Part shown: positions 1,424-54,336 of the stretch, piece after piece
Layout: the number at the start of each line of letters is the position of its first letter
Numbering within the stretch: the stretch's first letter is position 1
Position numbers and translations under genes: made by a program
IMG/VR virus record: IMGVR_UViG_3300045922_001133
Span: 1,996-65,995 of that record
Source of the DNA: a virus
Length of the DNA stretch: 64,000 nucleotides
Direction: 5' to 3' (one strand)
The notes under the pieces: model-generated
The model's input: the letters and a program-made list of their open reading frames with translations, nothing else
Told to the model about the DNA's origin: nothing
The model's database searches: none

Positions 1424-2557
1424 TTACATGAATGGCGTGCTGCGATCTGGCACACCGTACTGGTTTACCCCGTAGGCAGGAATAGCCCCACCTGCGTTGT
1501 ACTGAGCCGCGTGTGGCTCACGCCCGAGTATCTCGAGACCCTTCTTCGCGCCGGCGTGAAGGGCGTAGAGGCCCGCGGCGCCCGCGGCGATCGCAGGGAG
1601 CTTCCACTTCCACTTCCCATCAGCGAGACCGGTCCTCTGCCAGGCCTTCTGCAGATCGAACCCTTCCTCGCCGGGGGCTGAGGAACCGGCCGCGGCACCA
1701 CCAGGGGGCGCGGCCTGCGCCGGCGGCGGCGGCGGCGGCTGGACTTGCTGCGCCGCAAGAGCCTGGCGCGCCCGGGCGCGCGCCTCATCGATGGCTTTGC
1801 CCTCGTTCAGCATGCGCCGGGTGTTCCCCTGGAAGAAAGAGCCCCGCGTGAGCGGCTCATGAGGAAGGGGCGGGGGCTTGGGGGTGAGGGCGTCGAACTT
1901 GGCCTGCAACCGGCCCGCCGAAGTGAAGTTTCTCTTGATGTAGCTCTTTGCCTTCGAGAGCGACTGCCCCACCACCCCAGGTTTCTGGACTGGAGTGACG
2001 CCCATCTCCTTCGCCGCGCGCAGGAAGCGTGAAGTGGCACCAAAACCGCTCGCGGTCTGGGCCATGCTCTTCAGTCCCGTTCCGAATCCTTTGGCGACGT
2101 TACCGAGAACCTGGCCAATGCCAGCGTCCTTCTCGAGTGCGTAGTGCGCGAGATCGGAGCCGATTGCACTCGCCATCCGAACCATGCCCTCGTCCATACC
2201 GAGCGGGACGTCCTCACCCATGAGCTGCCGGGGGACGCCCTGGAGCGGCGCGCCGAGGCCCACGCCCTCGCCGCGCGCGGCCTGGAGCGCCAGCAGGATG
2301 AGGGGCATCCGGGTGTGCCGCGCGGCCTCGCGGACGGGGGCCATCTTCTGGTCCTCTATCATCCGGAAGATGTGGTTCATCCGCTCGGCCTGCGCCGAGA
2401 GCATCTCCTCGCGCAGGCGCGCGTTGCGCGCCCGGTTCGCCTCCAGGAGCCCAATCGCGAGGCGCGCAGCGAGCTCTTTCCCACCCGCGGCTTTCTCGAG
2501 GAGGACGTCCTCGTTGCCGAAGGCATGAAGCAGGCGGAGGTCGGGGAGGTTCTTCAT
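1424..2557 (-). CDS. hypothetical virion protein with EKxAG motifs and a hydrophobic C-terminal segment
   Basis: 377 aa; LLEKAAG, ALEKDAG; basic Gly-rich C-terminal half ending WKLPAIAAGAAGLYALH. Confidence 0.7.
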   Translation of the reverse strand: MKNLPDLRLLHAFGNEDVLLEKAAGGKELAARLAIGLLEANRARNARLREEMLSAQAERMNHIFRMIEDQKMAPVREAARHTRMPLILLALQAARGEGVGLGAPLQGVPRQLMGEDVPLGMDEGMVRMASAIGSDLAHYALEKDAGIGQVLGNVAKGFGTGLKSMAQTASGFGATSRFLRAAKEMGVTPVQKPGVVGQSLSKAKSYIKRNFTSAGRLQAKFDALTPKPPPLPHEPLTRGSFFQGNTRRMLNEGKAIDEARARARQALAAQQVQPPPPPPAQAAPPGGAAAGSSAPGEEGFDLQKAWQRTGLADGKWKWKLPAIAAGAAGLYALHAGAKKGLEILGREPHAAQYNAGGAIPAYGVNQYGVPDRSTPFM

Positions 2558-2913
2558 TCGTCGGGGTCGAACGGCGGCGGTTTCGTGAGCAGGAGGATGT
2601 TCTGCAGATGCTGGCGGGCTTCGTGCTGGGTGGCGTTGAGCGCGGCGAGCTCCGGGGACTCGGTGAAGGTGGCGAGGTTCAGCGGGGTCGGCGGGATCGA
2701 GGCGGCGCGCTCGATGAAGTCGTCGGTCAGCGCGGCGAAGGCACCGGAGTCGAGCTCGTCATCGGCGGGGTGTTCCTCCGCGGCTTCGAGCGCGACGAGG
2801 CCGTCGATCAGCGCTTCGTCGGTCCCGGGAACTCCCCGGAGGTCGTACGGCGAGAACTCATGGCTCGAAGCCAGCCTTCGATATGCCCCAGGGCGCGACT
2901 GATCTCTTGCCAT
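2554..2913 (-). CDS. hypothetical acidic protein
   Basis: 119 aa; 4-nt overlap with the downstream start; high GC3. Confidence 0.6.
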   Translation of the reverse strand: MARDQSRPGAYRRLASSHEFSPYDLRGVPGTDEALIDGLVALEAAEEHPADDELDSGAFAALTDDFIERAASIPPTPLNLATFTESPELAALNATQHEARQHLQNILLLTKPPPFDPDE

Positions 2914-3347
2914 TGTTCTTGCTGTCCCTTCACGTGCTGCGTGAACGTCTCGTTGAGTTTCTTGATGGCCTCTTCGCAGTTCTGAACCCGGGCCTGAAGA
3001 GCGAGGAAGTTCTCGGTCAGCTTGCTCGTGAGTCGACGCTCCTCCCTGCGTTCCTTCCCTCGCCCCCTCAGCTCGCTGTACAGCGAATCGAACTCTTCGT
3101 TGACGTCCTTCTTGAGATCCTCGATCAGCTTTCTCAGCGCACCAATGTCTTCAGGGTACTTCTTCTCGAGCCACTTCTCCGTGTGATTCTTGACCCAGTC
3201 CTCAGTCTTGGGGAGCCGTTCACGTTCGATGGTACGGAGCCGGTCTTCGAGGTTCTTGGTGACCTTCCAAATCGTGCCCGCAACGCCGCCGACGCCGGAC
3301 AGCACCGGCGGGACGATCTTCCATGCGAGCTCGATGAGACCGGACAC
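2808..3347 (-). CDS. membrane-anchored coiled-coil protein (possible lysis accessory)
   Basis: N-terminal hydrophobic segment LAWKIVPPVLSGVGGVAGTIW followed by long charged helices; 179 aa. Confidence 0.6.
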   Translation of the reverse strand: MSGLIELAWKIVPPVLSGVGGVAGTIWKVTKNLEDRLRTIERERLPKTEDWVKNHTEKWLEKKYPEDIGALRKLIEDLKKDVNEEFDSLYSELRGRGKERREERRLTSKLTENFLALQARVQNCEEAIKKLNETFTQHVKGQQEQWQEISRALGHIEGWLRAMSSRRTTSGEFPGPTKR

Positions 3348-8321: not shown

Positions 8322-9206
8322 TCACACCTTGAACGATGTACTCGTGACGGCCGTAACCGGCGCATCCGATTGTTCCACGGTGCCCCTTTGAATGGGAAGT
8401 ACGCGTCCCCCCATCGAGGGAGGACGAAGCCCCGCGCGATACGGATGTGCGGGCCGAATTACAACCTGCTTCGCGGGATTCAGCGGGTGCGGCACCTTGT
8501 GTTCTTCCACCCCCGGAGCAGAAGTATCGACCTTGTGGCCGGTGACCGGGCCCTTGGAGAGAAAGGTCATGCCGCGCGCGCGAAGCGTGAAGCCGATCTG
8601 ATCGACGATCTCCTTGTTGAGTGGAGTGAAGACCGACGTCCGATGGAACTGGAAGGGCAGCGACGCGGTCGTGGCGTACCACTCATCAGCGCTGTCCGCG
8701 ACCACGAGCGAGCCCGCGGGCGACGGCGCGCCGACGACGAACTGCCGACCGATCTCGAAGAAGCCCGCCTTCATGAGCATCTCGCGGTGCATCCAGAGCT
8801 GCTCGGCGATGAGCCACGCGAGGTCTTCGCTCTCGACGTCGATGCGAGAGCAGACGTTCACGTTCATGATGCCGGAAATGAGGACCGACTTCTTCTTCTG
8901 CCCGGTCTCGAACTTGTAGTCGAGGAGGTCGTCGTGCCCGAGCGTATTCGACTGCACCGGGCCACGAGTGAAGTTCACCGCCGGGCGCTTGCCGACGACG
9001 TCGCCGTGGATGACGTTCTCGTCGGTGATGTAGATCTCCGTCTCATGCGGTACGGGGTGCCACCGATACGAGCCGGCGGGCGCGGCGGAGAAGAGCCCCT
9101 GGACGAAAGAGACGTATAGCGTGCGGACCTGACGAAGCGCGTGCGCCCGCCAGTCGTCCTGCGGGAAGTCACCCTCCGCGCGCGTCGTCTGAATCTTCGA
9201 GGACAT
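8322..9206 (-). CDS. putative tail completion/terminator protein
   Basis: 294 aa between the neck genes and the sheath; assignment by synteny. Confidence 0.45.
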   Translation of the reverse strand: MSSKIQTTRAEGDFPQDDWRAHALRQVRTLYVSFVQGLFSAAPAGSYRWHPVPHETEIYITDENVIHGDVVGKRPAVNFTRGPVQSNTLGHDDLLDYKFETGQKKKSVLISGIMNVNVCSRIDVESEDLAWLIAEQLWMHREMLMKAGFFEIGRQFVVGAPSPAGSLVVADSADEWYATTASLPFQFHRTSVFTPLNKEIVDQIGFTLRARGMTFLSKGPVTGHKVDTSAPGVEEHKVPHPLNPAKQVVIRPAHPYRAGLRPPSMGGRVLPIQRGTVEQSDAPVTAVTSTSFKV

Positions 9207-9480
9207 CCCGTATTGCCTTCTGCTCCCGGGCCTTGTGCATAGCGTACGCGATGCCTGCGCCCGTACCCAACAGGGGCGCCGCGAGGAGGAGGTAGTTCTT
9301 CGGGATGCTCTTGCCGGTGAGGCTGTTGTACGCCTTGTTCGCGAGGTACCCCGCGCCCATACCCGCAGCGGTGCCGGCGCCGTACGCCAGGGCGCCGCCT
9401 CCGATGATCTTCCCGAGCTCGAGGTACTTCTTCGCGTCGGCGATCTTGAGCAGCTCTTCGGCGAATCCGGGGTACATCAC
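9169..9480 (-). CDS. small glycine-zipper membrane protein
   Basis: 103 aa; FAEELLKIA leader, then two Gly/Ala-rich hydrophobic helices (GGGALAYGAGTAAGMGAG; LLLAAPLLGTGAGIAY). Confidence 0.7.
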   Translation of the reverse strand: MMYPGFAEELLKIADAKKYLELGKIIGGGALAYGAGTAAGMGAGYLANKAYNSLTGKSIPKNYLLLAAPLLGTGAGIAYAMHKAREQKAIRDVLEDSDDARGG

Positions 9481-10379: not shown

Positions 10380-11401
10380 CAGACCTCGAGGGCCCGCGCC
10401 GCGTTGTAGAACCGGGCCGCCGCCTTCATGCGCTGAACGTTGTTCTTCCCCGGGAGCACGCGCCCGCGAGCCGCGTCGAGGCGATCGAGCGCGCGCATCG
10501 CGTGCGCCCGGAGCGGAGCGTTCTCGGGGAGCGGCGGCTTCGGCATGACGGAGTACTGCGTCGGGTTCTCGGCCTTCCCGATCGCGCCGCGCGCCCTGTC
10601 CGCAAGGCTCTTCACGTAGCTGGCGGTGGCATCGGTGAAGCTCTTGCCGCGCGGGCCCGACATCCGCATCCCGATACCTTTCGCGGCGGCGCCGGCCCCG
10701 GCGCCGAGACCTGCGCCCACGAGCGCACCGCCGAGACGGTTGTCCTTGCCACCGGCGAGCGCGCCGACACCCGCGCCGATGCCGGCGCCGACGAGCTTCG
10801 GGTTCGCCTTCGCGATCGAGAGCGCGGCGTTCAGCATGTTCGAGCCGAGCTTGTCCATGAGGTCGGACAGGTGGACGCCCTGCCGCGCGAGCGCGAGCCC
10901 CTTGCCCGCCTTGGCGAAGGAGAGCTTCTGCGGCTCGGCGTCAGGCCCGGCGTCGCCAGGCGCGCCGGCACCTTGGGCCTCGTCGTTCGGGACAACCGCC
11001 ATCGGCTGCTCGGGACCTTTCGTCGGCGCCACAGAGCCGTCGCGCTGCGCCGCGACGAGGTCGAGGTCGAGCATCTTCTTCTGGAGGCGGATCTGGTCGC
11101 GCGCCCGGTAGATCGCGTCGCTCTGCTCGTGCGGCGCGGTCTGGGCGACCTCCAACTCGAGCTCAGCCTTCTCGAGCGCGAGCGCCTGGTCGAAGAGGGG
11201 CGTGCCCTTGTACTTCTCGAGCCAGGTCCGGCCTTCTTCGTCGGGCGAGCACTCGGCGAACGATAGCTTCACCTCCCCGGACGCGAGCTTGCGGAGGTCC
11301 TCCTCCGGCAGCGTGGAGAGGACGTTCGCGAGCTTCACACTCTCCGACTGACGGAGCTCGTGGTCGTAGGCAACGGTGAGAAAGGTATCGAGCATGGTCA
11401 T
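10379..11401 (-). CDS. hypothetical virion protein with glycine-zipper segment
   Basis: 340 aa; LVGAGIGAGVGALAGG...LGGALVGAGLGAGAGAAAKG; RKLASG motif. Confidence 0.7.
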   Translation of the reverse strand: MTMLDTFLTVAYDHELRQSESVKLANVLSTLPEEDLRKLASGEVKLSFAECSPDEEGRTWLEKYKGTPLFDQALALEKAELELEVAQTAPHEQSDAIYRARDQIRLQKKMLDLDLVAAQRDGSVAPTKGPEQPMAVVPNDEAQGAGAPGDAGPDAEPQKLSFAKAGKGLALARQGVHLSDLMDKLGSNMLNAALSIAKANPKLVGAGIGAGVGALAGGKDNRLGGALVGAGLGAGAGAAAKGIGMRMSGPRGKSFTDATASYVKSLADRARGAIGKAENPTQYSVMPKPPLPENAPLRAHAMRALDRLDAARGRVLPGKNNVQRMKAAARFYNAARALEV

Positions 11402-14142
11402 CCTCGGATGGTGTGGGCGAGTTCACGGATTATCGGGCCGGCCGTCGAGCCGGCCCGGGCGCCGAGCGCGGCGCCGAGAGCGATGGCCGCAGTCGGGTGC
11501 TTCTGCGCGAGCTCGCCGGCGGCGAGGCGCATCTTCGCCTGCGCGATGTTGAGGGCGTTGCCGAAGCTGCCCGATCCGGACTGCTCGGCGGCCTCGAGCT
11601 TCTGCACCTTGCTCCGGAGCTTTTCGTTCGAGGCCCCACGCGACCGGTTCTCGATCGCTGTGACGCCGGCGCCGATACCGGCGCCGACGAGTCCGCCGAT
11701 GAGCCGATCGCGCAAGGCAGCCTCTTTGTACTCCGGCGTCTCGCCGGGAGCGGACTCCGAGTACCCGATCTCCGCCGCCGGCGAAGAAGAGGGGTCGCTC
11801 GCAGTCGGGCTCACGCCGGGGCCATCCTTGCCCGGCGTAGAAGAGCCCGGCGGGGTGCCGGCGTCGCCGCTCGCCGCCGGCGTCCCTGCCTGGTTCCCTC
11901 CCGGGTCCTGACCGCCCATGAGCGCCTGTTCCTGAGCCTGCTGATCGGCCGCAGCCTGATACGCAGAGCCACCCGCCTCCATCGTCGTCGACGGCGGGAG
12001 CTGGGTGTTCACGATCCCCATGAGCTGCTGCTTCAGCCCCTGCATCGCGTCGCGCATCTGCGTCGCGAGCTGCTGCTGCTGCAGTGTCTCGTTCGAAGCC
12101 GCGAGCGACTTCTGCATCGCAGCCGCCGCCGCGGCGTTCGCCGCGTTGACCTGCTGCATCGCCTGCTCCTGGATCTGCTGCGCCTGGGCGAGCGCCTGCT
12201 GGTTCATCTCCGAGCTCATGGCGACCTGCTCCTGGAGCTGCTGGACCTGCTGCTCTGCCGCCTGAAGGCGCTGCATCGCCTCGATGAAGCGCTCGCGGTA
12301 GTACATTCTCTCCGCGGCATCCTGCGCCTGCTGCGCGGCGCTTTCCTCGGCGAGGTAGGCCTCGAGCTCGTTGGCCTCTTCACCCCCGGGCACCGGCGGC
12401 GCCGTCGGCGCGCCGCCCATCTCGGAAAGCGCGCGCTTGAACCGCTCGGCGAGCTTGGTGTGCTGGCCGGCGGCGGGGCCGGAAAGCGGGGGAGGGGGAG
12501 GGGGAGGCGGCAGGACCTTGCCCTGGGCCGCGTCGGGCAACCCCTCCGACTTCTTCTCCTTAAGAGGGCCCTTCGCCTTTCGACGAGCCCTCTGTAGGGC
12601 CGCGAGCGCGGCGATGGTGCCCACGCCGATCGCGGCGGGGGCGGTGCCGGGGCCGAGGGGGCCCTTGGGGCCGAGGAGGCCCTTCGCCTTTCGACCAACC
12701 CTCCGTACCTTTCGACCAACCCTCAGCGCCGCGGTCGCGGCGCTGTCAGCCGCGTTCCGCATGGAGGTACTGAAGGTCTTGTACTTCTTACCGGTCGGCG
12801 TCGCCCGAAGCTCCCGAAGGAGGTCCTCGGCCGAAGGCCCCTTGGCCGCCGCTTCCTTGAGGTTCCCCTCGAGGTCCATCTCGGGGACGAAGACCGTAGG
12901 CGACTTTGAGGCGAGCGCGAGCTTCATCGCCGCGCCGTGGTAGCGGAGCGTGTCGGGGTGGAAGCGCTCGACGCGGGCGGAGGCCTTCTTCTCCTTGGGA
13001 ACACGCGTCCGGACGGAGATCGGGCCGAGCTTCAGGCGCTCCTTGTATTGCGAAGGATCGTCCAACCAAGCCATGTCGCTCTCGATCCGGTCCATCTCCT
13101 TCTCTGCTTTTTCCCCACGAAGGACACGGATGAACGCCGTCTTCGCGGCAACAGCAGCGGTGTCGACAGCCTCGTCAGGCGCAGCAGCCGTCTTCGCCTT
13201 GCCCTCGGACTTCTTCTTGTGGTGAACGGCGTGCGCCGCGTGCGCGCCGCCTATCGCGCCGCCGACGGCGCCGAGCGCTGCCAGGAGAGCCTTCTCTCGC
13301 GGGGACATCTTGATGCCGAGCGCCTTCGAGCCGTAGATGGTGCCGCCAGTCAGGGCGCCGAGCGCGGCGCCGCGAAGTGCCGGATGCTTCTCATCCCCTT
13401 CGGTCATGAGACCGCCGGCGAGCGCGCCGTAGCCGGAACCGGGGAGCGGGTTCAAGAAGCCGTGGCCGAGCGCGTAGGGCTGAACCTCCTCGAACGAGGC
13501 GGCCGTCTTGCCCTCCGGAGCGGCCTCCGGGGTGACCACCGCTTCCTCGGCGGCCCCCGCCTGGGGGTCGACCACCGCCGGGGGCGTGCCCGCCGTCGCC
13601 GCGGTCTCCGCGTGGGGGAGGAGCTGCCAGAGCTCGTCGAGGTGCTCCTGTTCCTTCGTGAGGTACTCCTCGATCTTGAAGCGCGTCGGGTTGTCCTCTC
13701 CGACGAGCTTCCGGAGATGCTGCCAGTTCGCGATGCCTTCCTGCTCCATCTGGATCATCGTCTTGATGATCTCGACGGGGTCAGAGCTTGGCGGGGGCGC
13801 GGGGATGTCCGGGACTTCGACCGCGCCCCCGAGAACGCTCATCCGCCGGAGGAGGAACTCCGCGTGCTCGGTCTCGTGCTGGGCGTGGTGTTGGAGCTCC
13901 TGCGCGATCGAGTGGTGCGCGAGGTCCCGCAACGACTGCGAGTACACGATGTACGCATAGTGCGTCTTGAGCTCGTTCTGCACCATGAGCGCCATGTGCT
14001 CGAGGACTTCCTCGATGGGGGCAGCGAACTGCCCCTCTAGCACGCCCGTCTCGTCTGGAGCCGCGGTCTTCAGCTTCAGGAAGAAGGCAGCGGCCTCGTG
14101 AAGCGGGATACCGTTCTCGATTTTGAACACGGTGCTCATCAT
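11398..14142 (-). CDS. multidomain virion protein: ferritin-like di-iron domain, glycine zippers and a Gln-rich coiled coil
   Basis: 914 aa; aa 44-176 have E57, E90xxH93, E133, E164xxH167 in a four-helix pattern; repeated KTAA/KEAA motifs; GxxxG-rich segments. Confidence 0.75.
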   Translation of the reverse strand: MMSTVFKIENGIPLHEAAAFFLKLKTAAPDETGVLEGQFAAPIEEVLEHMALMVQNELKTHYAYIVYSQSLRDLAHHSIAQELQHHAQHETEHAEFLLRRMSVLGGAVEVPDIPAPPPSSDPVEIIKTMIQMEQEGIANWQHLRKLVGEDNPTRFKIEEYLTKEQEHLDELWQLLPHAETAATAGTPPAVVDPQAGAAEEAVVTPEAAPEGKTAASFEEVQPYALGHGFLNPLPGSGYGALAGGLMTEGDEKHPALRGAALGALTGGTIYGSKALGIKMSPREKALLAALGAVGGAIGGAHAAHAVHHKKKSEGKAKTAAAPDEAVDTAAVAAKTAFIRVLRGEKAEKEMDRIESDMAWLDDPSQYKERLKLGPISVRTRVPKEKKASARVERFHPDTLRYHGAAMKLALASKSPTVFVPEMDLEGNLKEAAAKGPSAEDLLRELRATPTGKKYKTFSTSMRNAADSAATAALRVGRKVRRVGRKAKGLLGPKGPLGPGTAPAAIGVGTIAALAALQRARRKAKGPLKEKKSEGLPDAAQGKVLPPPPPPPPLSGPAAGQHTKLAERFKRALSEMGGAPTAPPVPGGEEANELEAYLAEESAAQQAQDAAERMYYRERFIEAMQRLQAAEQQVQQLQEQVAMSSEMNQQALAQAQQIQEQAMQQVNAANAAAAAAMQKSLAASNETLQQQQLATQMRDAMQGLKQQLMGIVNTQLPPSTTMEAGGSAYQAAADQQAQEQALMGGQDPGGNQAGTPAASGDAGTPPGSSTPGKDGPGVSPTASDPSSSPAAEIGYSESAPGETPEYKEAALRDRLIGGLVGAGIGAGVTAIENRSRGASNEKLRSKVQKLEAAEQSGSGSFGNALNIAQAKMRLAAGELAQKHPTAAIALGAALGARAGSTAGPIIRELAHTIRG

Positions 14143-15899: not shown

Positions 15900-17021
15900 T
15901 CAGTAGGTGTTGACCTGCGGGAACTTGAGGCCGGCGTCCACGCGGTTGTTCACCGCGCCGATGGCCTCCTCGGAGACCGGGATGAAGTTCTCGAGGAGCG
16001 CGTCCGCGTTCGTCACCGGGTTGGCGTCGGCGGAGTAGAGCTCCAACTTGCGGCAAGCCGCGATGTTGATGATCCCCATGCCGATGTCCTCCCAGGCCTG
16101 GAACGTGATGAGGTTCGCGATCTTGTCGATGTAGAACTTCGTCGCGTTCAAGACATAGAACTTCCCGAAGAACTCCGGCTTCGTGAAGCAGTACACGTTG
16201 CCCGGACGGAGGATGTCCGTCTTGATGGTGCGGACGTACGGCCGGCCCATCAGGGTGTTGTACTTGTAGCCGTCGACGGCCGTCTCCGACTGGAGGCGAT
16301 CGCCGAAGTCCTCGACCGTCCACTGGAGAAGGTCGTCCCAGTCGACCTCCGTCATCAAGAGACGCTCCGCCCGGAGGCGGTTGCCGTCGAGCATCTTGAA
16401 GAGCCGGACGATGTCCGGGCGCTGGACGGGGCGAACGACCGCGTCGTTGGTCGTCGCGGTGCGAGCGAGCTCTCCCTTCGCGACCGAGAACTCGACCGGC
16501 GGCGAGTTCTGGATCGCCGAGGCGTTGAGCGCCGCCGGCGTACCGCCGTTCGCCTCCACCTGGAGCGCCTGGACGGCCGCCTCCACGTGGATGATGAACT
16601 CGCGGTCCTCGACCTCCTGGATGTCCTTCACCGAGTTCTCCTCGATGATCTTGGTGATGGGCATCTCGTAGGCGAGAAGCTCCTGCTCCGTCTTCTGGAA
16701 GATCTCGCTCGCGATCGTGAAGAACGCGATCTCGGCCTTCGGGCCGCGGATGAAGCGGGCCTTCGGCTGGCCGCGGAAGGTGACGCTCATTGCGCGCGAG
16801 CGGGGCTCGACATCGACGATCTTCACCAGGGTGTCGTGGTTGACCGACCGCTGGCAATCGGCGCGGGTAACCTGTTCCGGTGGCAGGATCTTGCGGGCGA
16901 AGGAGACCTCGCGCAGGCGGTCGCGGATGTACGCGCCGCCGTACTCGGCGATCTTTTCCTTGCCCTCGGCCGACCCGAGCTTGGTCGCGAAGAGGTCGTT
17001 CAGAACACGGGGGGAAACCAT
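15900..17021 (-). CDS. major capsid protein (HK97-fold)
   Basis: 373 aa; AAGGAG RBS; position after protease, scaffold and decoration genes; strong terminator downstream; MCP-like segments (RDRLREVSFARKILP; KIIEENSVKDIQEVED). Confidence 0.8.
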   Translation of the reverse strand: MVSPRVLNDLFATKLGSAEGKEKIAEYGGAYIRDRLREVSFARKILPPEQVTRADCQRSVNHDTLVKIVDVEPRSRAMSVTFRGQPKARFIRGPKAEIAFFTIASEIFQKTEQELLAYEMPITKIIEENSVKDIQEVEDREFIIHVEAAVQALQVEANGGTPAALNASAIQNSPPVEFSVAKGELARTATTNDAVVRPVQRPDIVRLFKMLDGNRLRAERLLMTEVDWDDLLQWTVEDFGDRLQSETAVDGYKYNTLMGRPYVRTIKTDILRPGNVYCFTKPEFFGKFYVLNATKFYIDKIANLITFQAWEDIGMGIINIAACRKLELYSADANPVTNADALLENFIPVSEEAIGAVNNRVDAGLKFPQVNTY

Positions 17022-17659: not shown

Positions 17660-18025
17660 TCAGCCGATGCCGCCCAGGATGAATCGTTCGAACTCCGACG
17701 GACCGCCGGAGGTGTGTCCCTCGTCGCTCGTGAGGTGGGCGATCTTCTGGCCCATGTTCGGGCCCACGAGATCGACCGCCTCCGCGATCTTCTCGAGGCG
17801 ACCGCTTGCGGCGGCCTTCTCGAGCTGATCGACGAGATCCTTGATAGGGACGTCGAGGCTGATGCCCTTCTCGTGCATCGCATGCGCGACCTTCTCGGCC
17901 TCTTCCCGCTGCATGCGCGCCTGGGCCTCCTTCTTCCAGAAGTCCCGCTCCGCCGCGAGCTTGCGGAGGGTTTCGGGGACCTGGGAGAGGACCAACTGCA
18001 CCTGCTCTGCGCTCAACTTCTTCAT
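17660..18025 (-). CDS. putative scaffold-associated helical protein
   Basis: 121 aa, coiled-coil; KLSA, KLAA, EKVA, EKAAAS, QKIA motifs. Confidence 0.55.
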   Translation of the reverse strand: MKKLSAEQVQLVLSQVPETLRKLAAERDFWKKEAQARMQREEAEKVAHAMHEKGISLDVPIKDLVDQLEKAAASGRLEKIAEAVDLVGPNMGQKIAHLTSDEGHTSGGPSEFERFILGGIG

Positions 18026-44709: not shown

Positions 44710-44739
44710 CGCACACGAAACGCCGCCCTGGGAGTCGTC

Positions 44740-49081: not shown

Positions 49082-51109
49082 CTAGACGATCGCGGCTTCC
49101 CTTCGCGGCGGTCGCTGCTCGGGCAGAGGCTTCATGTTGATCTGCGAAGCTGCCGCTCCGGCGGCGCCGAGCCCGGGCTGCGCTGCCTCCGCGCGCTGCA
49201 CCGTGACGCCCATCTGCCTCAGCATCTGGACGACGAGGTCGGCGAGCTCGGGCGACTGCATCGCGAGGTTCTCGACAGCCTGCTGCTGTTGCTGCGGGGC
49301 CATGCCGGCGATGACCTTCGCCTGCATCACCGCCAGCGTCGGGAGGTCGACGGCGCCCGCCTGCCCCGGCTGCATCCGCTGCCCCTCGTTGAGGCCGGAC
49401 TGGAGCTCGGGCAGGCCGCCCTGCGTCGCCATCTCGCCCTGCGGCTGCTCAGTCTGGATCACACCGCCAGCCTCCTGGCCGCCGACGGTGCCCGCGCCCA
49501 TCGCCTCGGGGCCTCCGGGCTCCCCCGGCGCCGCGCCGGTCCCCATCGCCTCGATCTGCACCTGCTGCGCCTTGATCTGGTACTTCGCCATGATGAGCTG
49601 CTGCTCGCCCTGGATCTCCGCCATCGCGAGCTGCTGCTTCTTCGTCGCGGCGAGGCGCGACGCCGTCTCCTTCTCCATGATGAGGTTCTCCTCCGCCTGG
49701 TCGTAGTCGCACCCCGCGAGGAGCGTCGTGTCGGAGAGCTTGCCCGCCTGGTTGAGGTTCAGGTCGAAAGCCTTTCGCTGGATGTCGTCGGCCATCTTGA
49801 ACGGCTTGAAGCGCGGCGTCGCCATCGGCCAGCGAAGGAAGTTCGCCACCTCCCGCATCACCCAGCGCGTTAGCGCCTTGTGCCGGAGGATGAAGCCGAT
49901 GAACTGGTTCTCGAGCATGCGCATCGAGACGTTCGTGCCGGCATAGCTCATGCCGCCCTTGATGAACTCGATGGGCACAGTCATGCCGTTGAGGATCTGC
50001 TCCGACCAATGCGCGATCTCCTGCGTCATCAGGAGAGCCCTGCCGTCACCGCCAATGGTCTGGTTGCCGATCGGAAGCGGGAGGATCGGGATGTAGTTCG
50101 GGTCGTAGCGCCAGCGCGCGATCTCTGCGGCGACGTGCTCGCGCCAGTCGACGAGATTGATCGTCGTGAACGGATCGCTCGTGCCGCTCGCGGCCTGCGG
50201 GAAGATGATGCGCAGCGGCACAATGTGCTCGAGGAGGATGGCCTCCTGCGCCTTCTTCATGATCTGGAGGTAGAAGACGTCCTTCAGGACGGGGAGGAGA
50301 AGCGGGATGCCCCAACCCCGGTCGTGCGTCGCGATCGTCGGACGCCGCATGTGGAAGAGGTTGTCCTTCGAGAAGACGATGCCCTTCTGCTGGCGGAGCG
50401 CGGCGATGAAGACCTGCGGGATGCCCTCGAGGACGTCCTTCTTCCCGATGACGATGTCGTTCCGAACGGTCGCCGGGATGGTGTAGAAGTACGTGTACTC
50501 TCCCGTGATGTCGTTGTAGGTGATCTCGATGTCCTCCGGGTTCCAGCGGATCAACTTGATGCCGCTCGGGTTCCGGAAGTAGATGTCCTCCGCGTGCGCG
50601 TCACCGATGATGGAGCACTTCGGACACGTAAGGCGGAAGTTGTAGTTCGTGAAGACCCAGTTCGCGCGGATCTTGTCCGCCGGCGCGGAAAAGCCGCAAC
50701 TCGTGCACTTCAGGTACTTCTTGAACGGGTAGCCGATCGAGATGAACGCGTTTCCGTAGGTGTGGTAGTCGAGACCAACCTCGACCTGGAACGCACGAAA
50801 CCGGAGGTGGTCCTGGAAGTAGTCGGACCACTTCTTCGAGACATCCTTGTTCTCGTGGTCGATGATGAGGTCGGTGACCGGGTACTCGGAGAGCTTGAAG
50901 ACGACCGCGTTGATGAGCGGGTTCGTCAGGAAGTAGTACCGGCACCACCGGAACATCTGCTTGATCGTGGTCGGCAGATAAGTGTGCGCGATGTCGAAGA
51001 ACGGCGACGGGTAGTTGATCCCCGTGGTCGAACCGTTCTGGATGCGTCCACGCGTCGGGCTGAAACGCAACGGTGACGACGCAGACCCGAAGCCGCCAAA
51101 ACCCATCAT
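49082..51109 (-). CDS. portal protein with Zn-ribbon insertion
   Basis: 675 aa; portal-like NPLINAVV, GLDYHTYGNAF, IRWNPEDI, FHMRRP...GWGIPLL; CTSC...CPKC insert; Gln/Gly-rich tail. Confidence 0.8.
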   Translation of the reverse strand: MMGFGGFGSASSPLRFSPTRGRIQNGSTTGINYPSPFFDIAHTYLPTTIKQMFRWCRYYFLTNPLINAVVFKLSEYPVTDLIIDHENKDVSKKWSDYFQDHLRFRAFQVEVGLDYHTYGNAFISIGYPFKKYLKCTSCGFSAPADKIRANWVFTNYNFRLTCPKCSIIGDAHAEDIYFRNPSGIKLIRWNPEDIEITYNDITGEYTYFYTIPATVRNDIVIGKKDVLEGIPQVFIAALRQQKGIVFSKDNLFHMRRPTIATHDRGWGIPLLLPVLKDVFYLQIMKKAQEAILLEHIVPLRIIFPQAASGTSDPFTTINLVDWREHVAAEIARWRYDPNYIPILPLPIGNQTIGGDGRALLMTQEIAHWSEQILNGMTVPIEFIKGGMSYAGTNVSMRMLENQFIGFILRHKALTRWVMREVANFLRWPMATPRFKPFKMADDIQRKAFDLNLNQAGKLSDTTLLAGCDYDQAEENLIMEKETASRLAATKKQQLAMAEIQGEQQLIMAKYQIKAQQVQIEAMGTGAAPGEPGGPEAMGAGTVGGQEAGGVIQTEQPQGEMATQGGLPELQSGLNEGQRMQPGQAGAVDLPTLAVMQAKVIAGMAPQQQQQAVENLAMQSPELADLVVQMLRQMGVTVQRAEAAQPGLGAAGAAASQINMKPLPEQRPPRREAAIV

Positions 51110-52194
51110 GCGCTGAAGCCCTCACCCGCGCCCAACTGCCCAGCGGCGCGATCGGAGATGTATCGTTCGCCGGCGACGGCCTGTCCGCTGTCGGCGGTGA
51201 GATCGGCGGGGCCCGGAGGAGGCGGGGGCAAGAGCTTGCCTTTTCCTCGCCCCGCGGCGCGCCCGATGGCGCCGCCGGCGCGCGAGAGCGCGGTGCCGGC
51301 GACCATCTGACCCGTCATCGTGAGCGGGGAGAGGAGAAAGCCCCCGGCGGTCTGCGCGAGGCTCCGGCCGATGCGCTCGCCCTTCGAGCCGCCCTGCGCG
51401 TCGGGCTCGTCCTTGCTCCACACGGCGCTCGCGAGCTCGGCCGCCGGGAGGCCGACCGTGAGGGCCTTCATCGCGGGGCTCATGCCCTTCCACTGGTCGT
51501 TCACCGCGGTCCGGAGGACCTCGCCGACGGGACGATCGCGGAGCGCCTTGACGTAGCCAGGGATGGACGTGAGCCCCATCTCCTCGGCCTTGCGCCCCGC
51601 GTCGTAGGCGGCGCGCGCGTTCTCGAGGCGCTTCTGCGCGCCCTCGACAGCGGAACGGCCCATCGCGCGATCGACGAGCGACGCCTTGCCCTTACCGGCA
51701 CGCGCGGCGAAGAGCTCCTGCTCCGCCTGCCGGACCGCGCCGAGCCGCGGGGACGCGCCGTGCCCGATCTCGGCGAGCCCACCCTTCGGCTTCCAGCCAG
51801 TGAAAGTGTGCACCTGCCGCTGCCCGAAGTTGGCGCCGGGCAGATTCTTGAGGGCATTCCGGAACTTCTCGCCTGCCGCGGGGTTGATGGCGCCCGTCGC
51901 GCCGCCGACGCCCGCACCGATCGCGCCGCCGATGAGAGCTCCCCGGCCCGCGCCGGCCATGCCGTGGGCGAGGCTCCCGCCGAGGGCCTCGGCGATGCTC
52001 GCGCCCTGCGCGCGCTCCTCGCGGAACTTTCTTCCCCCCTGGACGGCCGCGCCGATGAGGGCACCCCCAGCGGCGCCGACACCGCCGCCGGCCCCGAGCG
52101 CGCCGAGCGCGGAGGAGATGCGGGGGCTGAAGCTGAAGGCGAGCTTCAACTCCCCTCGCAACCCCTCAAGAAGTTGTTCGGACAGCTCAGGCAT
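51106..52194 (-). CDS. Gly/Ala-rich glycine-zipper virion protein
   Basis: 362 aa; ELKLAF leader; GAGGGVGAAGGALIGAA; GALIGGAIGAGVGGATG. Confidence 0.7.
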   Translation of the reverse strand: MPELSEQLLEGLRGELKLAFSFSPRISSALGALGAGGGVGAAGGALIGAAVQGGRKFREERAQGASIAEALGGSLAHGMAGAGRGALIGGAIGAGVGGATGAINPAAGEKFRNALKNLPGANFGQRQVHTFTGWKPKGGLAEIGHGASPRLGAVRQAEQELFAARAGKGKASLVDRAMGRSAVEGAQKRLENARAAYDAGRKAEEMGLTSIPGYVKALRDRPVGEVLRTAVNDQWKGMSPAMKALTVGLPAAELASAVWSKDEPDAQGGSKGERIGRSLAQTAGGFLLSPLTMTGQMVAGTALSRAGGAIGRAAGRGKGKLLPPPPPGPADLTADSGQAVAGERYISDRAAGQLGAGEGFSA

Positions 52195-52978
52195 GTCCCA
52201 CCAAGGGTAGCTGATCTCGGAGTAGAGCTCGATTCTCCTCGACCGCGCTCTCGATGAGAAGAAGCCGGCGCATCTGCTCGCCGAGAATGGTCTCCCCGAG
52301 GGGCGGCATGCGCTTCGTCCGCTTGTAGTTCGCCCAGGCCTCGGCGACCTCCGACGTGTTCACGACGTAGCCGTCATCGTCGACGACTACGAAGTTGAGC
52401 GGCTCGAGCGGGTAGAAGACGCCCTCGAACTTGAAGACCTGAGCGAGGAACGTCTTCACCTCGCTCGACCACTCGACGTCGTCGCGGACCTTCTGCGCGG
52501 TGTAGACGGAGACGGCCGCCTGGGCGAGCGTCGGGACCTGGAGGTTCTCGAAGTCGGGGAAGAGGCCGTTGAGGGCCGCGGTCACCCAGGTGAAGACCTC
52601 CCAACGCTCCCAGAACGTGTCGACGAGGTGGAGCGTCCGGCACGCCTGGATCTTCGCCATGTTGAGGTCGGAGACCTCGGTGGTCTTGAAGTCCTGAGGG
52701 ATGCGGTACTCGAGGGTCTCGGGTTCCCAGAGGAGGAAGTCCGGACCATACTTCTTGAGCAGGAAGAGGTCGAGGACGAGAGGATGCGCGTCAGGATGCC
52801 GGAAGAAATTGAATACGGTCACGTTGCCGACACTCGCGCGCGGCGCCGCATGCTTCTCTTCTTCCGGCTCCTCGACGGTCTCTATCTGCTCGGTCGGTTC
52901 GTCGTCCGCCTGCGCCGGAAGGTTCGCCGCGGCAGCCGCTAGCCGAGCTGCGAGCTTGTCGATGTCGAGCATGATCAC
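52187..52978 (-). CDS. hypothetical protein
   Basis: 263 aa; overlapping neighbours; EKHAA after an acidic leader. Confidence 0.7.
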   Translation of the reverse strand: MIMLDIDKLAARLAAAAANLPAQADDEPTEQIETVEEPEEEKHAAPRASVGNVTVFNFFRHPDAHPLVLDLFLLKKYGPDFLLWEPETLEYRIPQDFKTTEVSDLNMAKIQACRTLHLVDTFWERWEVFTWVTAALNGLFPDFENLQVPTLAQAAVSVYTAQKVRDDVEWSSEVKTFLAQVFKFEGVFYPLEPLNFVVVDDDGYVVNTSEVAEAWANYKRTKRMPPLGETILGEQMRRLLLIESAVEENRALLRDQLPLVGHA

Positions 52979-54336
52979 ACTGGGGAGTTTTCGGTCGCCA
53001 TCCGGATGAGGAGCTTCTTCTGATCGACCGGGAGGCTCTTGTAGATGCCCACCGGGTCTTTGCAGAACTCCTCGCAGAAGTCATCCCCGAACGTGCTCTT
53101 GAGCCCCGGCTTGTTCGACTTCAGGCGCTCGAGGTCCGCGGCGGTGACGTAGTAGTTGCCGATGATGTCGGTGAACGTCTTCTTCTCGTCCTCCGCCGTC
53201 TTGTCGAAGCCGAAGGTCGACGCGAACGGATCGGGCACGTCACGGTCGTAGTAGGCCGCGACGCCGGCGGCCTTGTCGAGCTCGCCGAGCACCACCGCGT
53301 ACTCCTCCGGCGGCATAAGCGCGGCGCTCTTCACGAGCTCGTCGTAGAGGCCGCGCAAGTCCGCGTCGTCGATGAGCGCCTTACGCGCGTCGATCGCGAA
53401 CTGGAGCTCGATCGCCGAGGCGTACTTCTCGGAGCCGTACTTGCGGGCCTCGTCGCTCACGGGGATGCCAAGCTCCTGCGCGCGCTTCACCATGTTCACG
53501 CAGTACTCGTGGCGCTCCGCCGGCGAGAAGCACTTGCCGTACTCGTCGAAGTACGCGCTCGCGCGCTTCACCTGCTCGTAGCTGTCGAGCGGGTACCTCT
53601 CACCGAGAGCGTAGCGGCTGGCCTTCTTCACGGTCGTCTGGGTCATGGCTTCTTTCTCGGTGACGTCGACGACCGGGCGGAGATGGGCGGTCTTCTTCAC
53701 CACGGCCTTCGTCGGCTCGGCCTTCGCGGTTGTATCGCAGGACAGGGGCATCGAGCTCGTGCCGACGACCTCTGCAACGTGCTCCATCCCACCAGACATC
53801 GCGGCAAGTCCGCCAGCGGCGCCACCCATCGCCTCGCCGGCGCGGACCTTGGCGAGGTTCGCCTTGATGTTCTGGCTGGTGCCCTTCGCAACCGAGGGGA
53901 CCTTCATCGCGGTCAACGCGGCGCCGACGGGGTTCTTCGCCGCGGAGCGAAGAGCCATCCCCGCGAGGCCGGCCTCCTTCTCGAGCTCCTCCGGAACATC
54001 GAGACCGTACCAACCGCACGCCACCTTGAGGTTCTCGGCGGCCACCTGACGTGCTTCCGCCGGAAGCTTGTGCGCGTTCTTGAGGAAGTAGAGCACCGAG
54101 AGCGCCGTGTTGCCCTCATCGATACAGGCGAACTTGCGGAGCTTCTCCTCGCCGTTCAGGAGAACGAGCGCGAACACGTCGTCCGGGAGACGAGAGCGCT
54201 CGTCGGCCGTGACCACGTGGGCCTGCTTGACGAAGTTGGGGATCTCGTCGCTCGAGGCGAACATCGTCCGGAGAACTTCGCCACCCACGTCGTCGTAAAC
54301 GTCGAGAACAAGGCCGCTCGTCTGCATGGAGGCCAT
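52975..54336 (-). CDS. hypothetical virion protein with internal repeated helical domains
   Basis: Start placed at MASMQTSG; LPDDVFAL...RKF and RYPLDSYEQVKRASAYF resemble a recurrent phage domain; EKEAG, KKTAH, DKTAE. Confidence 0.65.
   Translation of the reverse strand: MASMQTSGLVLDVYDDVGGEVLRTMFASSDEIPNFVKQAHVVTADERSRLPDDVFALVLLNGEEKLRKFACIDEGNTALSVLYFLKNAHKLPAEARQVAAENLKVACGWYGLDVPEELEKEAGLAGMALRSAAKNPVGAALTAMKVPSVAKGTSQNIKANLAKVRAGEAMGGAAGGLAAMSGGMEHVAEVVGTSSMPLSCDTTAKAEPTKAVVKKTAHLRPVVDVTEKEAMTQTTVKKASRYALGERYPLDSYEQVKRASAYFDEYGKCFSPAERHEYCVNMVKRAQELGIPVSDEARKYGSEKYASAIELQFAIDARKALIDDADLRGLYDELVKSAALMPPEEYAVVLGELDKAAGVAAYYDRDVPDPFASTFGFDKTAEDEKKTFTDIIGNYYVTAADLERLKSNKPGLKSTFGDDFCEEFCKDPVGIYKSLPVDQKKLLIRMATENSPV

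Follow-up and report, generated by a model that had tools for sequence, protein, structure and literature searches.

To our knowledge, all characterised proteases with the fold shared by T4 gp21 and herpesvirus assemblin recognise P3-x-P1 and cut after P1. The maturational and release sites of the herpesvirus assemblins are V/L-x-A|S, and these enzymes cut after Ala. The T4 prohead protease processes itself and its motif is L/I-x-E (PMC9026906), while the prohead proteases of phiKZ (gp175), 201phi2-1 (gp268) and SPN3US (gp245) use [S/A/G]-x-E or A-x-E; the T4, phiKZ and SPN3US enzymes all cut after Glu (PMC9026906, PMC10052503). In the phiKZ/SPN3US-type phages, N-terminal propeptides with redundant sites are removed from many head and ejection proteins, and related phages keep the cleavage motif (PMC9026906, PMC10052503). 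N-terminal propeptides, propeptides with several motifs each, and a protease that cleaves itself all have precedents in SPN3US, phiKZ and T4 (PMC10052503, PMC9026906).

We analysed a 64,000-nucleotide stretch of viral DNA (the window; positions 1,996 to 65,995 of IMG/VR record IMGVR_UViG_3300045922_001133), in which an earlier note had described a recurrent K-x-A-(S/A/G) motif and proposed it as the processing code of a prohead protease. All eight N-terminal sites listed there (EKAAG at K22, LKIAD at K12, KTAA at K25, TKTAF at K15, EKTAS at K31, EKTAG at K17, EKSAA at K13 and LKLAF at K17) are present in the genes and at the residues given, as are the internal copies DKTASA, KKTASA, VKTASA, KEASA, EKVAA and VKHAG and the TKLGS/EKIAE of the capsid N-terminus. 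When residues were shuffled within each of 43 window proteins (19,955 aa), K.A[SAG] was observed 62 times against 32.0 expected (z 5.5), KTA[SAG] 11 times against 1.7 (z 7.5) and [DE]K.A[SAG] 20 times against 3.8 (z 8.7), with only 27, 2 and 1 occurrences of the respective reversed forms; local shuffling in 10-40-aa windows gave the same outcome. The K-x-A observation is real, directional and far above chance, also over a background matched in Lys and Ala. The excess is confined to the minus-strand virion blocks (58 motifs vs 27.2 expected, z 6.0), whereas the plus-strand replication block is at background (4 vs 4.2). K-x-A occurs within the first 35 aa of 15 of the 43 proteins (7.7 expected, P ~0.003), 13 of these 15 being virion-block proteins, and its density in motif-rich proteins reaches ~3-5 copies per 100 aa. 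Among the window proteins, the portal, terminase and replication proteins are without the motif; the portal was our negative control:

49082..51109, minus strand: portal protein, 33% identical to Arash portal gp204 over 473 aa (E 1e-94), with a K-x-A-[SAG] count of zero

We interpret K-x-A as probably the core of the site that the phage's own capsid-maturation (prohead) protease recognises and cleaves, and the window contains a candidate gene for this enzyme:

20164..24063, minus strand: candidate prohead protease, 1299 aa, two inteins, from Hint/LAGLIDADG domains and a fold match
22363..23514, minus strand: intein 1 (protease aa 184-567), boundaries from the sequence and intein-free homologs, Pfam Hint/LAGLIDADG
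21160..22215, minus strand: intein 2 (protease aa 617-968), boundaries from the sequence and intein-free homologs, Pfam Hint/LAGLIDADG
23962..23973, minus strand: protease N-terminal site E-K31-T-A|S
20920..20931, minus strand: protease linker site V-K1045-T-A|S (K309 after splicing), between the catalytic and C-terminal helical domains

The exteins sum to about 563 aa and comprise the catalytic domain and a C-terminal helical domain; among 56 homologs in related loci, 49 stay below 730 aa, most of them being intein-free proteins of 540-680 aa. For one homolog that lacks inteins, the AF2 model matched T4 gp21 (5jbl) with a VIA Z of 7.5-7.7 over 131 of 164-165 aa (rmsd 2.7-2.9) and the VZV protease with a Z of 6.7, the VZV, PRV, HSV-1 and HCMV proteases together spanning Z 5-6.7, and matches of the T4 gp21/herpes type ranked top among 48,161 PDB representatives. 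A BFVD structure search with the protease returned 30 matches at E<=1e-3, some annotated as prohead proteases; it had no Pfam match, Peptidase_S77 included, and no PDB sequence match. With Z below 8, the match in fold is middling. The product of 20164-24063 has a T4 gp21/herpes assemblin-like fold, in agreement with the gene having been called a protease. A His-His pair, a Ser-Met pair and a later His are conserved in 29 intein-free homologs. The Arash homolog gp222 keeps His-His and Ser-Met; the later His has no alignment there, and its third catalytic residue is not securely aligned.

Two invariant K-x-A sites flank the catalytic domain, both in low-confidence segments of the model. At the N-terminal site, K31 and A33 are invariant in the 29 intein-free homologs, K-x-[AGS] is found in 88 of 89 representatives (<=50% identity), and the counterparts are KQAA in Arash gp222 and KSAA in D69 0270; the model gives pLDDT<50 for the segment that holds it, directly ahead of the catalytic domain. 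At the linker site, which the model places in its disordered stretch (287-346), K308 is invariant and A310 nearly so. This site may resemble a herpesvirus release site.

The genes around the protease carry the motif, several of them in multiple copies:

24685..25926, minus strand: 413-aa head protein, start M25 of a 437-aa ORF, nine conserved K-x-A sites (e.g. 25519-25530, D-K-T-A-S in a hypervariable linker, and 25153-25164)
24068..24685, minus strand: 205-aa protein with an acidic amphipathic leader, E-K17-T-A|G (24626-24637), then a glycine-zipper hydrophobic segment
19114..20133, minus strand: 339-aa acidic scaffold-like protein directly downstream of the protease, ten K-x-A sites (N-terminal ones at 20080-20091 and 20029-20040; TKTAF is K15)
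18029..19033, minus strand: 334-aa Lys/Ala-rich scaffold-like protein, 14 K-x-A sites
17660..18025, minus strand: 121-aa helical protein, six K-x-A sites
15900..17021, minus strand: major capsid protein (PHROG major head protein)
16971-16982 and 16944-16955, minus strand: candidate capsid N-terminal sites K14-L-G-S (in TKLGS) and K23-I-A-E (in EKIAE)

Across homologs of ~40% identity, K.A[SAG] was counted 288 times in the 413-aa family (32.4 expected, reversed 35), 243 times in the 334-aa family (76.1, reversed 51), 135 times in the 121-aa family (18.8, reversed 18) and 89 times in the 339-aa family (26.9, reversed 20); the capsid, decoration and tail-side families showed no excess in these counts. 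In the three largest head-module families, 55-84% of homologs retain the K.A pairs, while the average i,i+2 pair reaches 15-22% and A.K 5-15%, which bears out conservation in otherwise divergent homologs. Individual sites are retained in 33-43 of 43 homologs (413-aa protein), in at least 14 of 18 for seven of ten sites (339-aa protein) and in 52-58 of 58-60 for three sites (121-aa protein). K-x-A persists in length-variable or hypervariable linkers, and in leaders at variable spacing. In seven families, the fraction of homologs with a K-x-A among the first 45 residues is 0.91-1.00 (shuffles 0.27-0.50), while six control families are at shuffle level; for the 205-aa protein the figure is 23 of 24 (0.96, shuffles 0.36), with variable spacing. 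A leader M-D-x-F-L-A-E-Y-Y-G-T...K-T-A-S recurs in the 339-aa family. The capsid N-terminus is nearly invariant (56 different strings among the homologs taken from 79 related loci); the capsid body is depleted of the motif (4 K.A[SAG] vs 19.3 expected, 63 homologs). In the model of the 413-aa protein, loops or disordered regions hold K133, K255, K51 and K304, and confident helices hold the remaining five of the nine sites, so that certain copies may serve a structural purpose or be cut only once the protein unfolds. Such a helical location is no less compatible with a structural or binding role than with cleavage.

Similar leaders or sites occur in virion-block proteins further away:

11398..14142, minus strand: 914-aa protein, leader ending K25-T-A-A (14059-14070), then a ferritin-like domain
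32470..34836, minus strand: 788-aa virion-block protein, F/L-E-K13-S-A|A (34789-34800), internal K-K-T-A-S-A (34189-34200)
51106..52194, minus strand: 362-aa glycine-zipper protein, leader ...E-L-K17-L-A|F (52135-52146)
1424..2557, minus strand: 377-aa protein, leader ...L-L-E-K22-A-A|G (2483-2494)
9169..9480, minus strand: 103-aa glycine-zipper protein, L-L-K12-I-A|D (9436-9447)
52975..54336, minus strand: about 453-aa protein, start M60 of the ORF, six K-x-A-[SAG] sites

The leader of the 914-aa protein, I-P-L-x-E-A-A-x-F-F-x-K-L-K-T-A, recurs in homologs and also occurs fused to differing downstream sequences; K-x-A is in the first 45 aa of 0.91 of this family (0.27 in shuffles), and further sites, K212-T-A-A-S (13498-13509) and K317-T-A-A (13183-13194), follow the ferritin-like domain (Pfam Ferritin, 1.4e-15, aa 54-175). 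F-E-K-x-[AGS]-[AGT]-E is retained in 21 homologs of the 788-aa protein, with Ala swapped solely for Gly or Ser. Most of 19 orthologs of the 362-aa protein (34-46% identity where the search matched them) have, as read by eye, F-x-D-E-L-x-K-x-[AGS] near the N-terminus, and all five homologs found for the 377-aa protein have Y-G-T-(x)4-7-K-x-A, a leader type shared with the 339-aa family. Homologs of the 103-aa protein retain L-C-K-[LM]-A-[EG], the N-terminal enrichment in this small family being not significant against shuffles; several sites of the 453-aa protein are retained in homologs. In an unbiased ranking of all 223 ORFs of the complete relative G003, the top six by motif excess are orthologs of the window's motif-rich proteins, the 788-aa ortholog standing first (11 vs 1.2) and the 453-aa ortholog fourth (6 vs 0.8, reversed 0).

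The source lineage consists of uncultured phages of ~190 kb, with Salmonella phage Arash and Vibrio phage D69 as distant cultured relatives; tblastn with the capsid protein and protease matched only Arash, three Vibrio phages and, for the protease only, Bacillus phage G. The unannotated head modules Arash gp220-gp226 and D69 0268-0275 have the gene order of the window, with proteases of 33-34% and capsid proteins of 26-30% identity to those of the window phage, but lack the inteins and have a lower GC content. The motif stands at matching places, namely around protease residue 30, at capsid residue 27 (G-L-[VT]-K-E-A-G, matched to K23 by eye), in a small glycine-zipper leader (LLKAAG at residue 21 of Arash gp221, the positional counterpart of the 205-aa protein without a BLAST match) and, in 6-10 copies, in the scaffold-like protein (Arash gp223 6 vs 1.0, D69 0271 10 vs 0.9). 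An equally unbiased ranking of all 251 Arash ORFs placed gp220, gp223, gp225, gp242, the protease homolog gp222 and gp221 at the top, and the motif-rich genes adjoin the protease in the D69 head module as well. Among 1,200 residue pairs (gaps 0-2), KxA ranked first in both head modules (Arash 34 vs 12.3, D69 41 vs 15.2), followed by KxxS and L/MxK, so that the extended motif was rebuilt independently. The Arash paper makes no mention of protease, cleavage or motif, and for the virion proteome it gives coverage values only, peptide data being absent from its supplement.

The motif itself extends upstream, with a hydrophobic residue at -2 and Glu at -1 relative to Lys, and the fuller consensus is best read as hydrophobic (L/F/M)-Glu-Lys-x-Ala, then mostly Ser/Ala/Gly. 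Lys is, together with Ala, the most invariant position, Ala being now and then Gly or Ser in homologs. Ser/Ala/Gly are strongly preferred directly after Ala, but conserved sites also show E, Q, F and H. The K-x-A|(S/A/G) motif of the earlier note proved too strict after Ala and too short upstream. Of the computational outcomes that the note had named as refuting its idea, all were checked and none was obtained; its interpretation as a whole is partly supported. The wide variation at P1' (F, E, H, Q) at some conserved sites counts against a cleavage reading.

Compared with the known systems, T4 gp21 provides the best structural match to the catalytic domain, and T4 likewise has a short P3-x-P1-type motif common to many head proteins, a multi-site scaffold and short amphipathic, acidic N-terminal leaders that end in the motif. 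The window phage differs from T4 in a presumed P1 Ala (rarely Gly/Ser) rather than Glu, a P3 Lys rather than Leu/Ile, several leader types where T4 internal proteins use one 10-residue capsid-targeting sequence (CTS), and a protease with a long C-terminal helical domain, two inteins and no Pfam Peptidase_S77 match. It resembles the phiKZ-type phages in large size and a virion-packaged multisubunit RNA polymerase, but those enzymes all cut after Glu, and no sequence similarity to these phages was detected apart from RNA-polymerase motifs, the tblastn searches with the capsid protein and protease having matched only the phages named above. Herpesvirus assemblin shares the related fold, Ala then Ser in the motif and, as it would appear, a conserved site in the stretch that joins the protease domain to a C-terminal scaffold-like domain; P3 is Val/Leu there instead of Lys, and host range and virion are entirely different. 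We place the putative cut after Ala (Lys as P3, Ala as P1) because recognition is of the P3-x-P1 type in T4, phiKZ/SPN3US and herpesviruses.

That the motif is a functionless by-product of Lys/Ala/Glu-rich, helix-prone composition and shared ancestry is highly improbable. The proteins are indeed rich in Lys and Ala and counts over homologs are not independent events, but composition is controlled for by the within-protein and local-window shuffles and the reversed motifs, within the same alignments the retention of K.A exceeds that of average residue pairs three- to fourfold, KxA heads the pair ranking in two independent distant lineages, and positions turn over in linkers and leaders while copy number stays; this reading is already largely refuted by the shuffles, pair conservation and pair ranking. 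It is unlikely, though with more in its favour, that K-x-A is an uncleaved docking or assembly motif, a short repeated helix feature through which scaffold-like and internal proteins would bind the inner capsid surface, the portal or one another. Confident helices of the 413-aa protein and helical parts of the 121-aa and 339-aa proteins contain many of the conserved copies, and both the variable P1' and the density are compatible with a repeat-like interaction surface; however, the best-conserved full-consensus copies are in disordered, length-variable linkers and N-termini, the invariant protease copies stand exactly at the borders of the catalytic domain, the capsid body is depleted, and the layout of leaders, multi-site scaffolds and protease self-sites matches the cleavage systems of T4, phiKZ and SPN3US (PMC10052503).

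We give a small chance to the sites being cut at another bond (after Lys, trypsin-like) or by a host or second phage protease, with Ala as context, since the scissile bond is not fixed by the sequence data and Lys is as invariant as Ala. Against this, the same motif is found in phages whose hosts differ widely (Salmonella, Vibrio and high-GC environmental ones), pointing to an enzyme that the phage encodes, the Ser/Ala/Gly preference after Ala fits a P1' position, and herpesvirus proteases cut after P1. The characterised phage proteases of this fold also read P3-x-P1 and cut after P1 (PMC9026906, PMC10052503).

Under cleavage by the phage's own prohead protease, the enzyme would mature by splicing out its two inteins, act inside the assembled procapsid and trim itself at the two conserved sites either side of the catalytic domain. 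The three scaffold-like proteins encoded between the protease and capsid genes would be cut at multiple sites into short peptides able to leave the shell, and the 413-aa protein, upstream of the protease, would likewise be cut into short peptides. A short N-terminal piece of the capsid protein would be removed, as would the 12-33-residue amphipathic, mostly acidic leaders of otherwise unrelated virion proteins, which may act as capsid-targeting sequences. The restriction to the head module, the conservation across deep divergence and the protease-like fold make cleavage by the protease at this signal the most probable reading, with a specificity that would be new in a kind of system that is well known.

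The window (64 kb, ~65% GC) covers most of an IMG/VR viral contig of 66 kb and carries plus-strand replication genes between two minus-strand virion blocks. The genes on which the analysis turns are as follows; other proteins are named by their length in amino acids.

15900-17021, major capsid protein (PHROG major head protein)
20164-24063, minus strand, candidate prohead protease, 1299 aa
24685-25998, 437-aa ORF encoding a head protein
26650-30825, large terminase, 1391 aa, with an intein and a LAGLIDADG endonuclease (Pfam Intein_splicing 2e-18, LAGLIDADG_3 1e-23)
49082-51109, portal, 33% identical to gp204 of Salmonella phage Arash

The head module runs in the order terminase, 437 aa, 205 aa, protease, 339/334/121 aa, 180 aa and capsid protein. 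The protease gene adjoins the scaffold-like and major capsid genes, the head-module setting of assemblin-fold proteases. A megablast search with 12 kb of the window found no match among cultured phages, and Pfam and PHROGs returned no protease, scaffold or portal name for the key proteins. The capsid protein has 163 relatives in IMG/VR, of which 80 (72-86% identity) were kept; many lie on 170-195-kb contigs, some with terminal repeats. Direct terminal repeats are present in four complete relatives (G003, G007, G012 and G013), and one 177-kb record (G009, which contains the related locus L031) is classed as a provirus by IMG/VR. The nearest cultured phages by capsid protein are Arash (29.5%), which can be grown on a laboratory strain, and the Vibrio phages D69, D181 and D148 (25.7%). 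Arash gp220-gp226 and the corresponding D69 genes follow the order of the window, the terminase aside, and the head modules of these cultured members are unannotated. Outside the head module, a 2671-aa protein (36701-44716) matches as a single chain the separate beta and beta' subunits of Arash (gp206 and gp216), with 32% identity to beta over about 1,500 aa; in Arash virions, beta and beta' rank with the most abundant of the detected proteins (PMC10585845).

The N-terminal K-x-A sites that the earlier note had read as protease processing sites were each found at the residue assigned to them, and the internal copies that it listed were also found. Two of the longest ORFs, 24685-25998 and 52975-54513 (512 aa), overcall their starts; homologs point to M25 (25926) and M60 (54336), the starts that the same note had assumed, leaving a 413-aa head protein in the first case. 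With M60 as the indicated start of the 512-aa ORF, the K-M-A-S at its residue 59 is probably untranslated.

The motif is enriched well beyond composition, as the earlier proposal required. When each of the 43 accepted window proteins was shuffled internally, K.A[SAG] was observed 62 times against 32.0 expected (z 5.5), KTA[SAG] 11 times against 1.7 (z 7.5) and [DE]K.A[SAG] 20 times against 3.8 (z 8.7), while the reversed motifs occurred 27, 2 and 1 times, respectively. Shuffling inside local windows of 10, 20 or 40 residues left these figures unchanged, so low-complexity patches do not account for the excess. The enrichment also separates structural from replication proteins, with 58 copies against 27.2 expected in the virion blocks and 4 against 4.2 in the replication block; for the [DE] form, the virion blocks hold 19 copies against 3.3 expected and a single reversed one. 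K-x-A falls inside the first 35 residues in 15 of the 43 proteins, compared with 7.7 expected (P about 0.003). Of all residue pairs at gaps of 0-2, KxA shows the strongest over-representation in the six head-module proteins that surround the protease (48 versus 23.3), with KxxS second; both are outside the six leading pairs in the other 17,220 residues of the window. The pattern is that of a prohead-protease code, one short motif in several unrelated head proteins above composition.

We then analysed conservation in ORFs pulled from the 80 related loci and grouped by BLAST. The accessory head proteins there share only about 40% identity with those of the window, and high motif counts, individual sites and leader sites alike are retained at this divergence, in agreement with the conservation that the earlier reading implied. 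Counts for the four families are listed below.

Copies of K.A[SAG] in head-protein families from related loci
437-aa family: 288 observed, 32.4 expected, 35 reversed
334-aa family: 243 observed, 76.1 expected, 51 reversed
121-aa family: 135 observed, 18.8 expected, 18 reversed
339-aa family: 89 observed, 26.9 expected, 20 reversed

With an alignment slip of 3 residues allowed, the K.A pairs of the window proteins are retained in 55-84% of homologs, against 15-22% for average i,i+2 pairs and 5-15% for A.K pairs (three largest families). In the 437-aa family, D-K-T-A-S is present in 42 of 43 homologs, though the length of its linker varies between a few and more than 60 residues, and nearly all sequences of the 205-aa family have an N-P-V-[DE]-E-F-L leader followed by K-x-A at variable distance. 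Because a search for related loci with the single 788-aa protein retrieved one relative only, homologs of the 788-, 362- and 377-aa families were taken from the records of related loci instead. The 788-aa family retains F-E-K-x-[AGS]-[AGT]-E, with Gly or Ser as the sole replacements of Ala; the 362-aa family retains F-x-D-E-L-x-K-x-[AGS] and the 377-aa family Y-G-T-(x)4-7-K-x-A. In seven families, K-x-A occurs within the first 45 residues in 0.91-1.00 of the members (0.27-0.50 in shuffles), and in six control families (180, 300, 294, 155 and 215 aa, and the terminase) it stays at shuffle level. Pooled unique instances give a consensus with a hydrophobic residue at -2 (L/F/M, about 2.7-fold enriched), Glu at -1 (3.3-fold), Lys, T/L/V/I/Q, Ala, and then Ser (3.6-fold), Ala or Gly.

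The decoration-like and tail-side families show no K.A[SAG] excess, and the capsid protein family is depleted of the motif, with 4 copies against 19.3 expected in 63 homologs whose close relationship makes this a matter of few independent events. The portal has none. Both the capsid depletion and the motif-free portal would fit selection that keeps the motif out of proteins which have to remain intact.

The same proteins stand out in more distant genomes. When all 223 ORFs of G003, a complete relative of 195.6 kb, were ranked by motif excess, the top six were orthologs of the window's motif-rich proteins, namely the 788-, 437-, 339- and 512-aa proteins, the protease and the 334-aa protein. The Arash genome (180.8 kb) yielded 251 ORFs, whose ranking is headed by gp220 (7 versus 0.9 expected) and the scaffold-like gp223 (6 versus 1.0), followed by gp225 (5 versus 0.5), gp242 (5 versus 0.9) and the protease homolog gp222 (3 versus 0.7), with the small leader protein gp221 (2 versus 0.3) two places below gp222. 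Except for gp242, these top genes lie around gp222, just upstream of the capsid gene. Copies in Arash include K30-Q-A32 of gp222, K21-A-A23 of gp221, K29-Q-A31 of gp223 and, in the capsid protein gp226, K27-E-A29 followed by Gly30. In D69, the scaffold-like 0271 has 10 sites against 0.9 expected, each fitting h-[ED/x]-K-x-A-[SA] (h, hydrophobic); G-L-E-K-S-A-A stands at residue 27 of the protease homolog 0270, the leader of the small protein 0269 ends in D-K-V-A-S at 18, and the tail-side genes hold one copy in 0279 and zero in the other eight. The capsid proteins of both phages carry G-L-[VT]-K-E-A-G at residue 27, which by eye corresponds to K23-I-A-E of the window's capsid protein. With no prior motif, KxA ranks first of 1,200 residue pairs in the head modules of Arash (34 versus 12.3) and D69 (41 versus 15.2), KxxS and L/MxK coming next. 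The motif thus recurs at the same places in related phages, in the IMG/VR relatives as in Arash and D69. Farther away, gp19 of Bacillus phage G is a homolog of the protease in sequence (28% identity, E 1e-10) and in fold, and the first 55 residues of its N-terminus hold three sites, V-K-I-A-G, V-K-T-A-A and V-K-I-A-P. The phage G head module (L155, 5188-29604) shows a weak K-x-A excess (20 versus 11, rank 9), mild in gp7 (14 versus 7.3) and gp21 (7 versus 2.8), and its capsid protein contains no K-x-A.

The candidate protease is interrupted by two LAGLIDADG inteins (aa 184-567 and 617-968). These inteins (21160-23514) stand 49 residues apart, both beside Cys residues just after the candidate catalytic Ser. 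Homologs in related loci are mostly intein-free (540-680 aa). A profile search of 1.84 billion cluster representatives retrieved 2,927 proteins at E<=1e-3 (1,259 at 1e-30). Lengths of 900-1,700 aa, as expected of intein-bearing proteins, are common among the top representatives, so the gene looks like a recurrent intein target. Pfam (Peptidase_S77/S78/S21) gave nothing at E<=0.1 for an intein-free homolog, nor did the family profile find any PDB sequence at E<=10; assignment as a protease is therefore based on the fold, the conserved residues and synteny. For one intein-free homolog, an AF2 model built from an alignment of 29 sequences has a confident domain at about residues 36-286 (pLDDT 80-96 over most of 81-260). 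VIA-align placed T4 gp21 (5jbl) first in both comparisons, against the Foldseek candidates (Z 7.7) and against 48,161 PDB representatives (Z 7.5), with 131 of 164-165 aa aligned and an rmsd of 2.7-2.9; next came the VZV protease (Z 6.7), and further herpesvirus proteases reached Z scores of about 5-6. In a plain Foldseek search of the PDB, T4 gp21 again ranked first, but with a weak E-value (0.16); against BFVD, Foldseek gave 30 matches at E<=1e-3, many annotated as prohead proteases and including phage G gp19 (8.5e-13) and proteins of phiRSL1 and PaBG. The modelled catalytic domain thus appears to have the assemblin fold, on a match that is good but not overwhelming, the Z scores being middling. 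Proteases of this fold have catalytic residues in the order His-Ser-His or His-Ser-Glu. All 29 intein-free homologs conserve H118/H119, S175 and H217 (His-His, Ser-Met and a later His) as candidates; His-His and Ser-Met are kept in Arash gp222, where the third His is not securely aligned.

Two K-x-A sites of the protease are family-invariant, K31/A33 and K308/A310 of the modelled homolog (window 23962-23973 and 20920-20931). They fall in two stretches of low confidence, 22-35 and 287-346, one on either side of the catalytic domain. Such a layout would be expected if the enzyme freed itself at both ends, from a propeptide at the N-terminus and from a helical, scaffold-like domain at the C-terminus. 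K-x-[AGS], mostly as [FL]-E-K-x-A-[SA], stands just before the catalytic domain in 88 of the 89 top representatives with an N-terminus. Co-folding of the catalytic domain with the first 70 residues of a scaffold-like protein (from locus L003) scored 0.25, below the mark, a result that weighs neither for nor against the pairing.

Several explanations of the motif were weighed against one another. The Lys/Ala-rich composition of these proteins might by itself generate K-x-A; the shuffles, the pair retention and the residue-pair ranking led us to reject chance or composition as the source. Processing by signal peptidase or as lipoproteins was dropped because the hydrophobic segments lie downstream of the motif, not before it. 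We consider it probable that the K-x-A sites are cleavage sites of the prohead protease. A gp21-type enzyme would then cut scaffold-like proteins at many sites, take short amphipathic acidic leaders off otherwise unrelated virion proteins at a single site each, and process itself at its own K-x-A sites, the scissile bond being placed after Ala with Lys at P3. The bond is put there because the T4, phiKZ and SPN3US enzymes read P3-x-P1 and cut after Glu, and assemblin cuts V/L-x-A-S between Ala and Ser; cleavage after Ala rather than at another bond seems somewhat less assured than cleavage itself. The S/A/G residue after Ala that the earlier note had included is present at most sites, but F, E, H or Q occupies P1' at several well-conserved ones. 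Four of the nine conserved sites in the model of the 413-aa protein (K51, K133, K255 and K304) are in loops or disordered stretches and the other five lie inside confident helices, so some copies may have a role in packing or binding, or be cleaved only during unfolding of the scaffold. The Arash virion proteome comprises 116 proteins with coverage values only, its supplement being a feature table.

To our knowledge, prohead-protease codes are known experimentally only for a few phage groups (T4-like, phiKZ-like and HK97-like) and for herpesviruses, and all gp21-type phage proteases characterised so far cut after Glu. In T4, phiKZ and SPN3US, a gp21-type protease removes N-terminal propeptides, cuts propeptides redundantly and processes itself; T4 has, in addition, a 10-residue leader that directs proteins into the head (PMC9026906, PMC10052503). 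The present system resembles these, as read from sequence, in its many scaffold-like sites, its single sites ending acidic leaders and its self-sites in the protease. Unlike them, it conserves Ala, with Gly and Ser as rare substitutes, and because Ala stands where those systems have Glu, the K-x-A code would represent a different specificity outside the x-E group. The predicted Ala-Ser chemistry is like that of the herpesvirus enzyme; the P3 residue, here Lys, differs from that of herpesvirus sites. On the cleavage reading, this is a known kind of system, a prohead-protease code with removable leaders, whose specificity is without a report in the literature searched, where no K-x-A prohead code was found.

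Where T4 has one type of targeting sequence, several leader types occur here, with likeness judged by eye. The leader F-L-x-E-Y-Y-G-T...K-T-A is common to the non-homologous 339-aa and 377-aa families (again a similarity by eye), and the leader I-P-L-x-E-A-A-x-F-F-x-K...K-x-A of the 914-aa family precedes different downstream sequences in four related loci (L028, L002, L015 and L050), which suggests a portable module. That leaders target proteins into the head is the weakest step of the proposal, for which the shared leader types and the differing sequences downstream of one leader in the 914-aa family speak. The 914-aa protein (11398-14142) has a ferritin-like domain at aa 54-175 (13615-14013; Pfam PF00210, 1.4e-15) between two K-T-A-A sites; cutting at both, should it occur, would set free a ferritin-like protein of about 185 aa inside the capsid. 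Glycine-zipper hydrophobic segments follow the leaders of the products of 24068-24685, 51106-52194, 9169-9480 and 10379-11401, the last with weak Pfam Gly-zipper matches, and Arash gp221 has the same layout of leader and glycine zipper. After leader removal, such proteins would be small and membrane-active, possibly ejection or pore components.

If the cleavage reading is true, hydrophobic-E-K-x-A with cleavage before Ser would be a new specificity in the same fold, with a chemistry nearer to the herpesvirus enzyme. The code would define the maturation pathway of a widespread ~190-kb phage lineage with a handful of cultured members, would allow mature N-termini, propeptides and the complement of proteins inside the capsid to be predicted from sequence, and would give a reason for the protease, among all genes, to carry two inteins. 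The clade has about 2,900 protease clusters at 50% identity and includes the cultured Arash and Vibrio phage D69. A bolder and distinctly tentative reading is that this very large, almost wholly uncultured clade uses an undescribed herpes-like Ala-Ser head-maturation code with Lys at P3, in which the protease-removable leaders might form a modular address system for packing into the capsid a mixed load destined for the host (membrane peptides of the glycine-zipper type, an enzyme resembling ferritin and perhaps proteins associated with the polymerase). Were the address-system reading true, the packaged proteome would become readable from sequence across thousands of metagenomic genomes.
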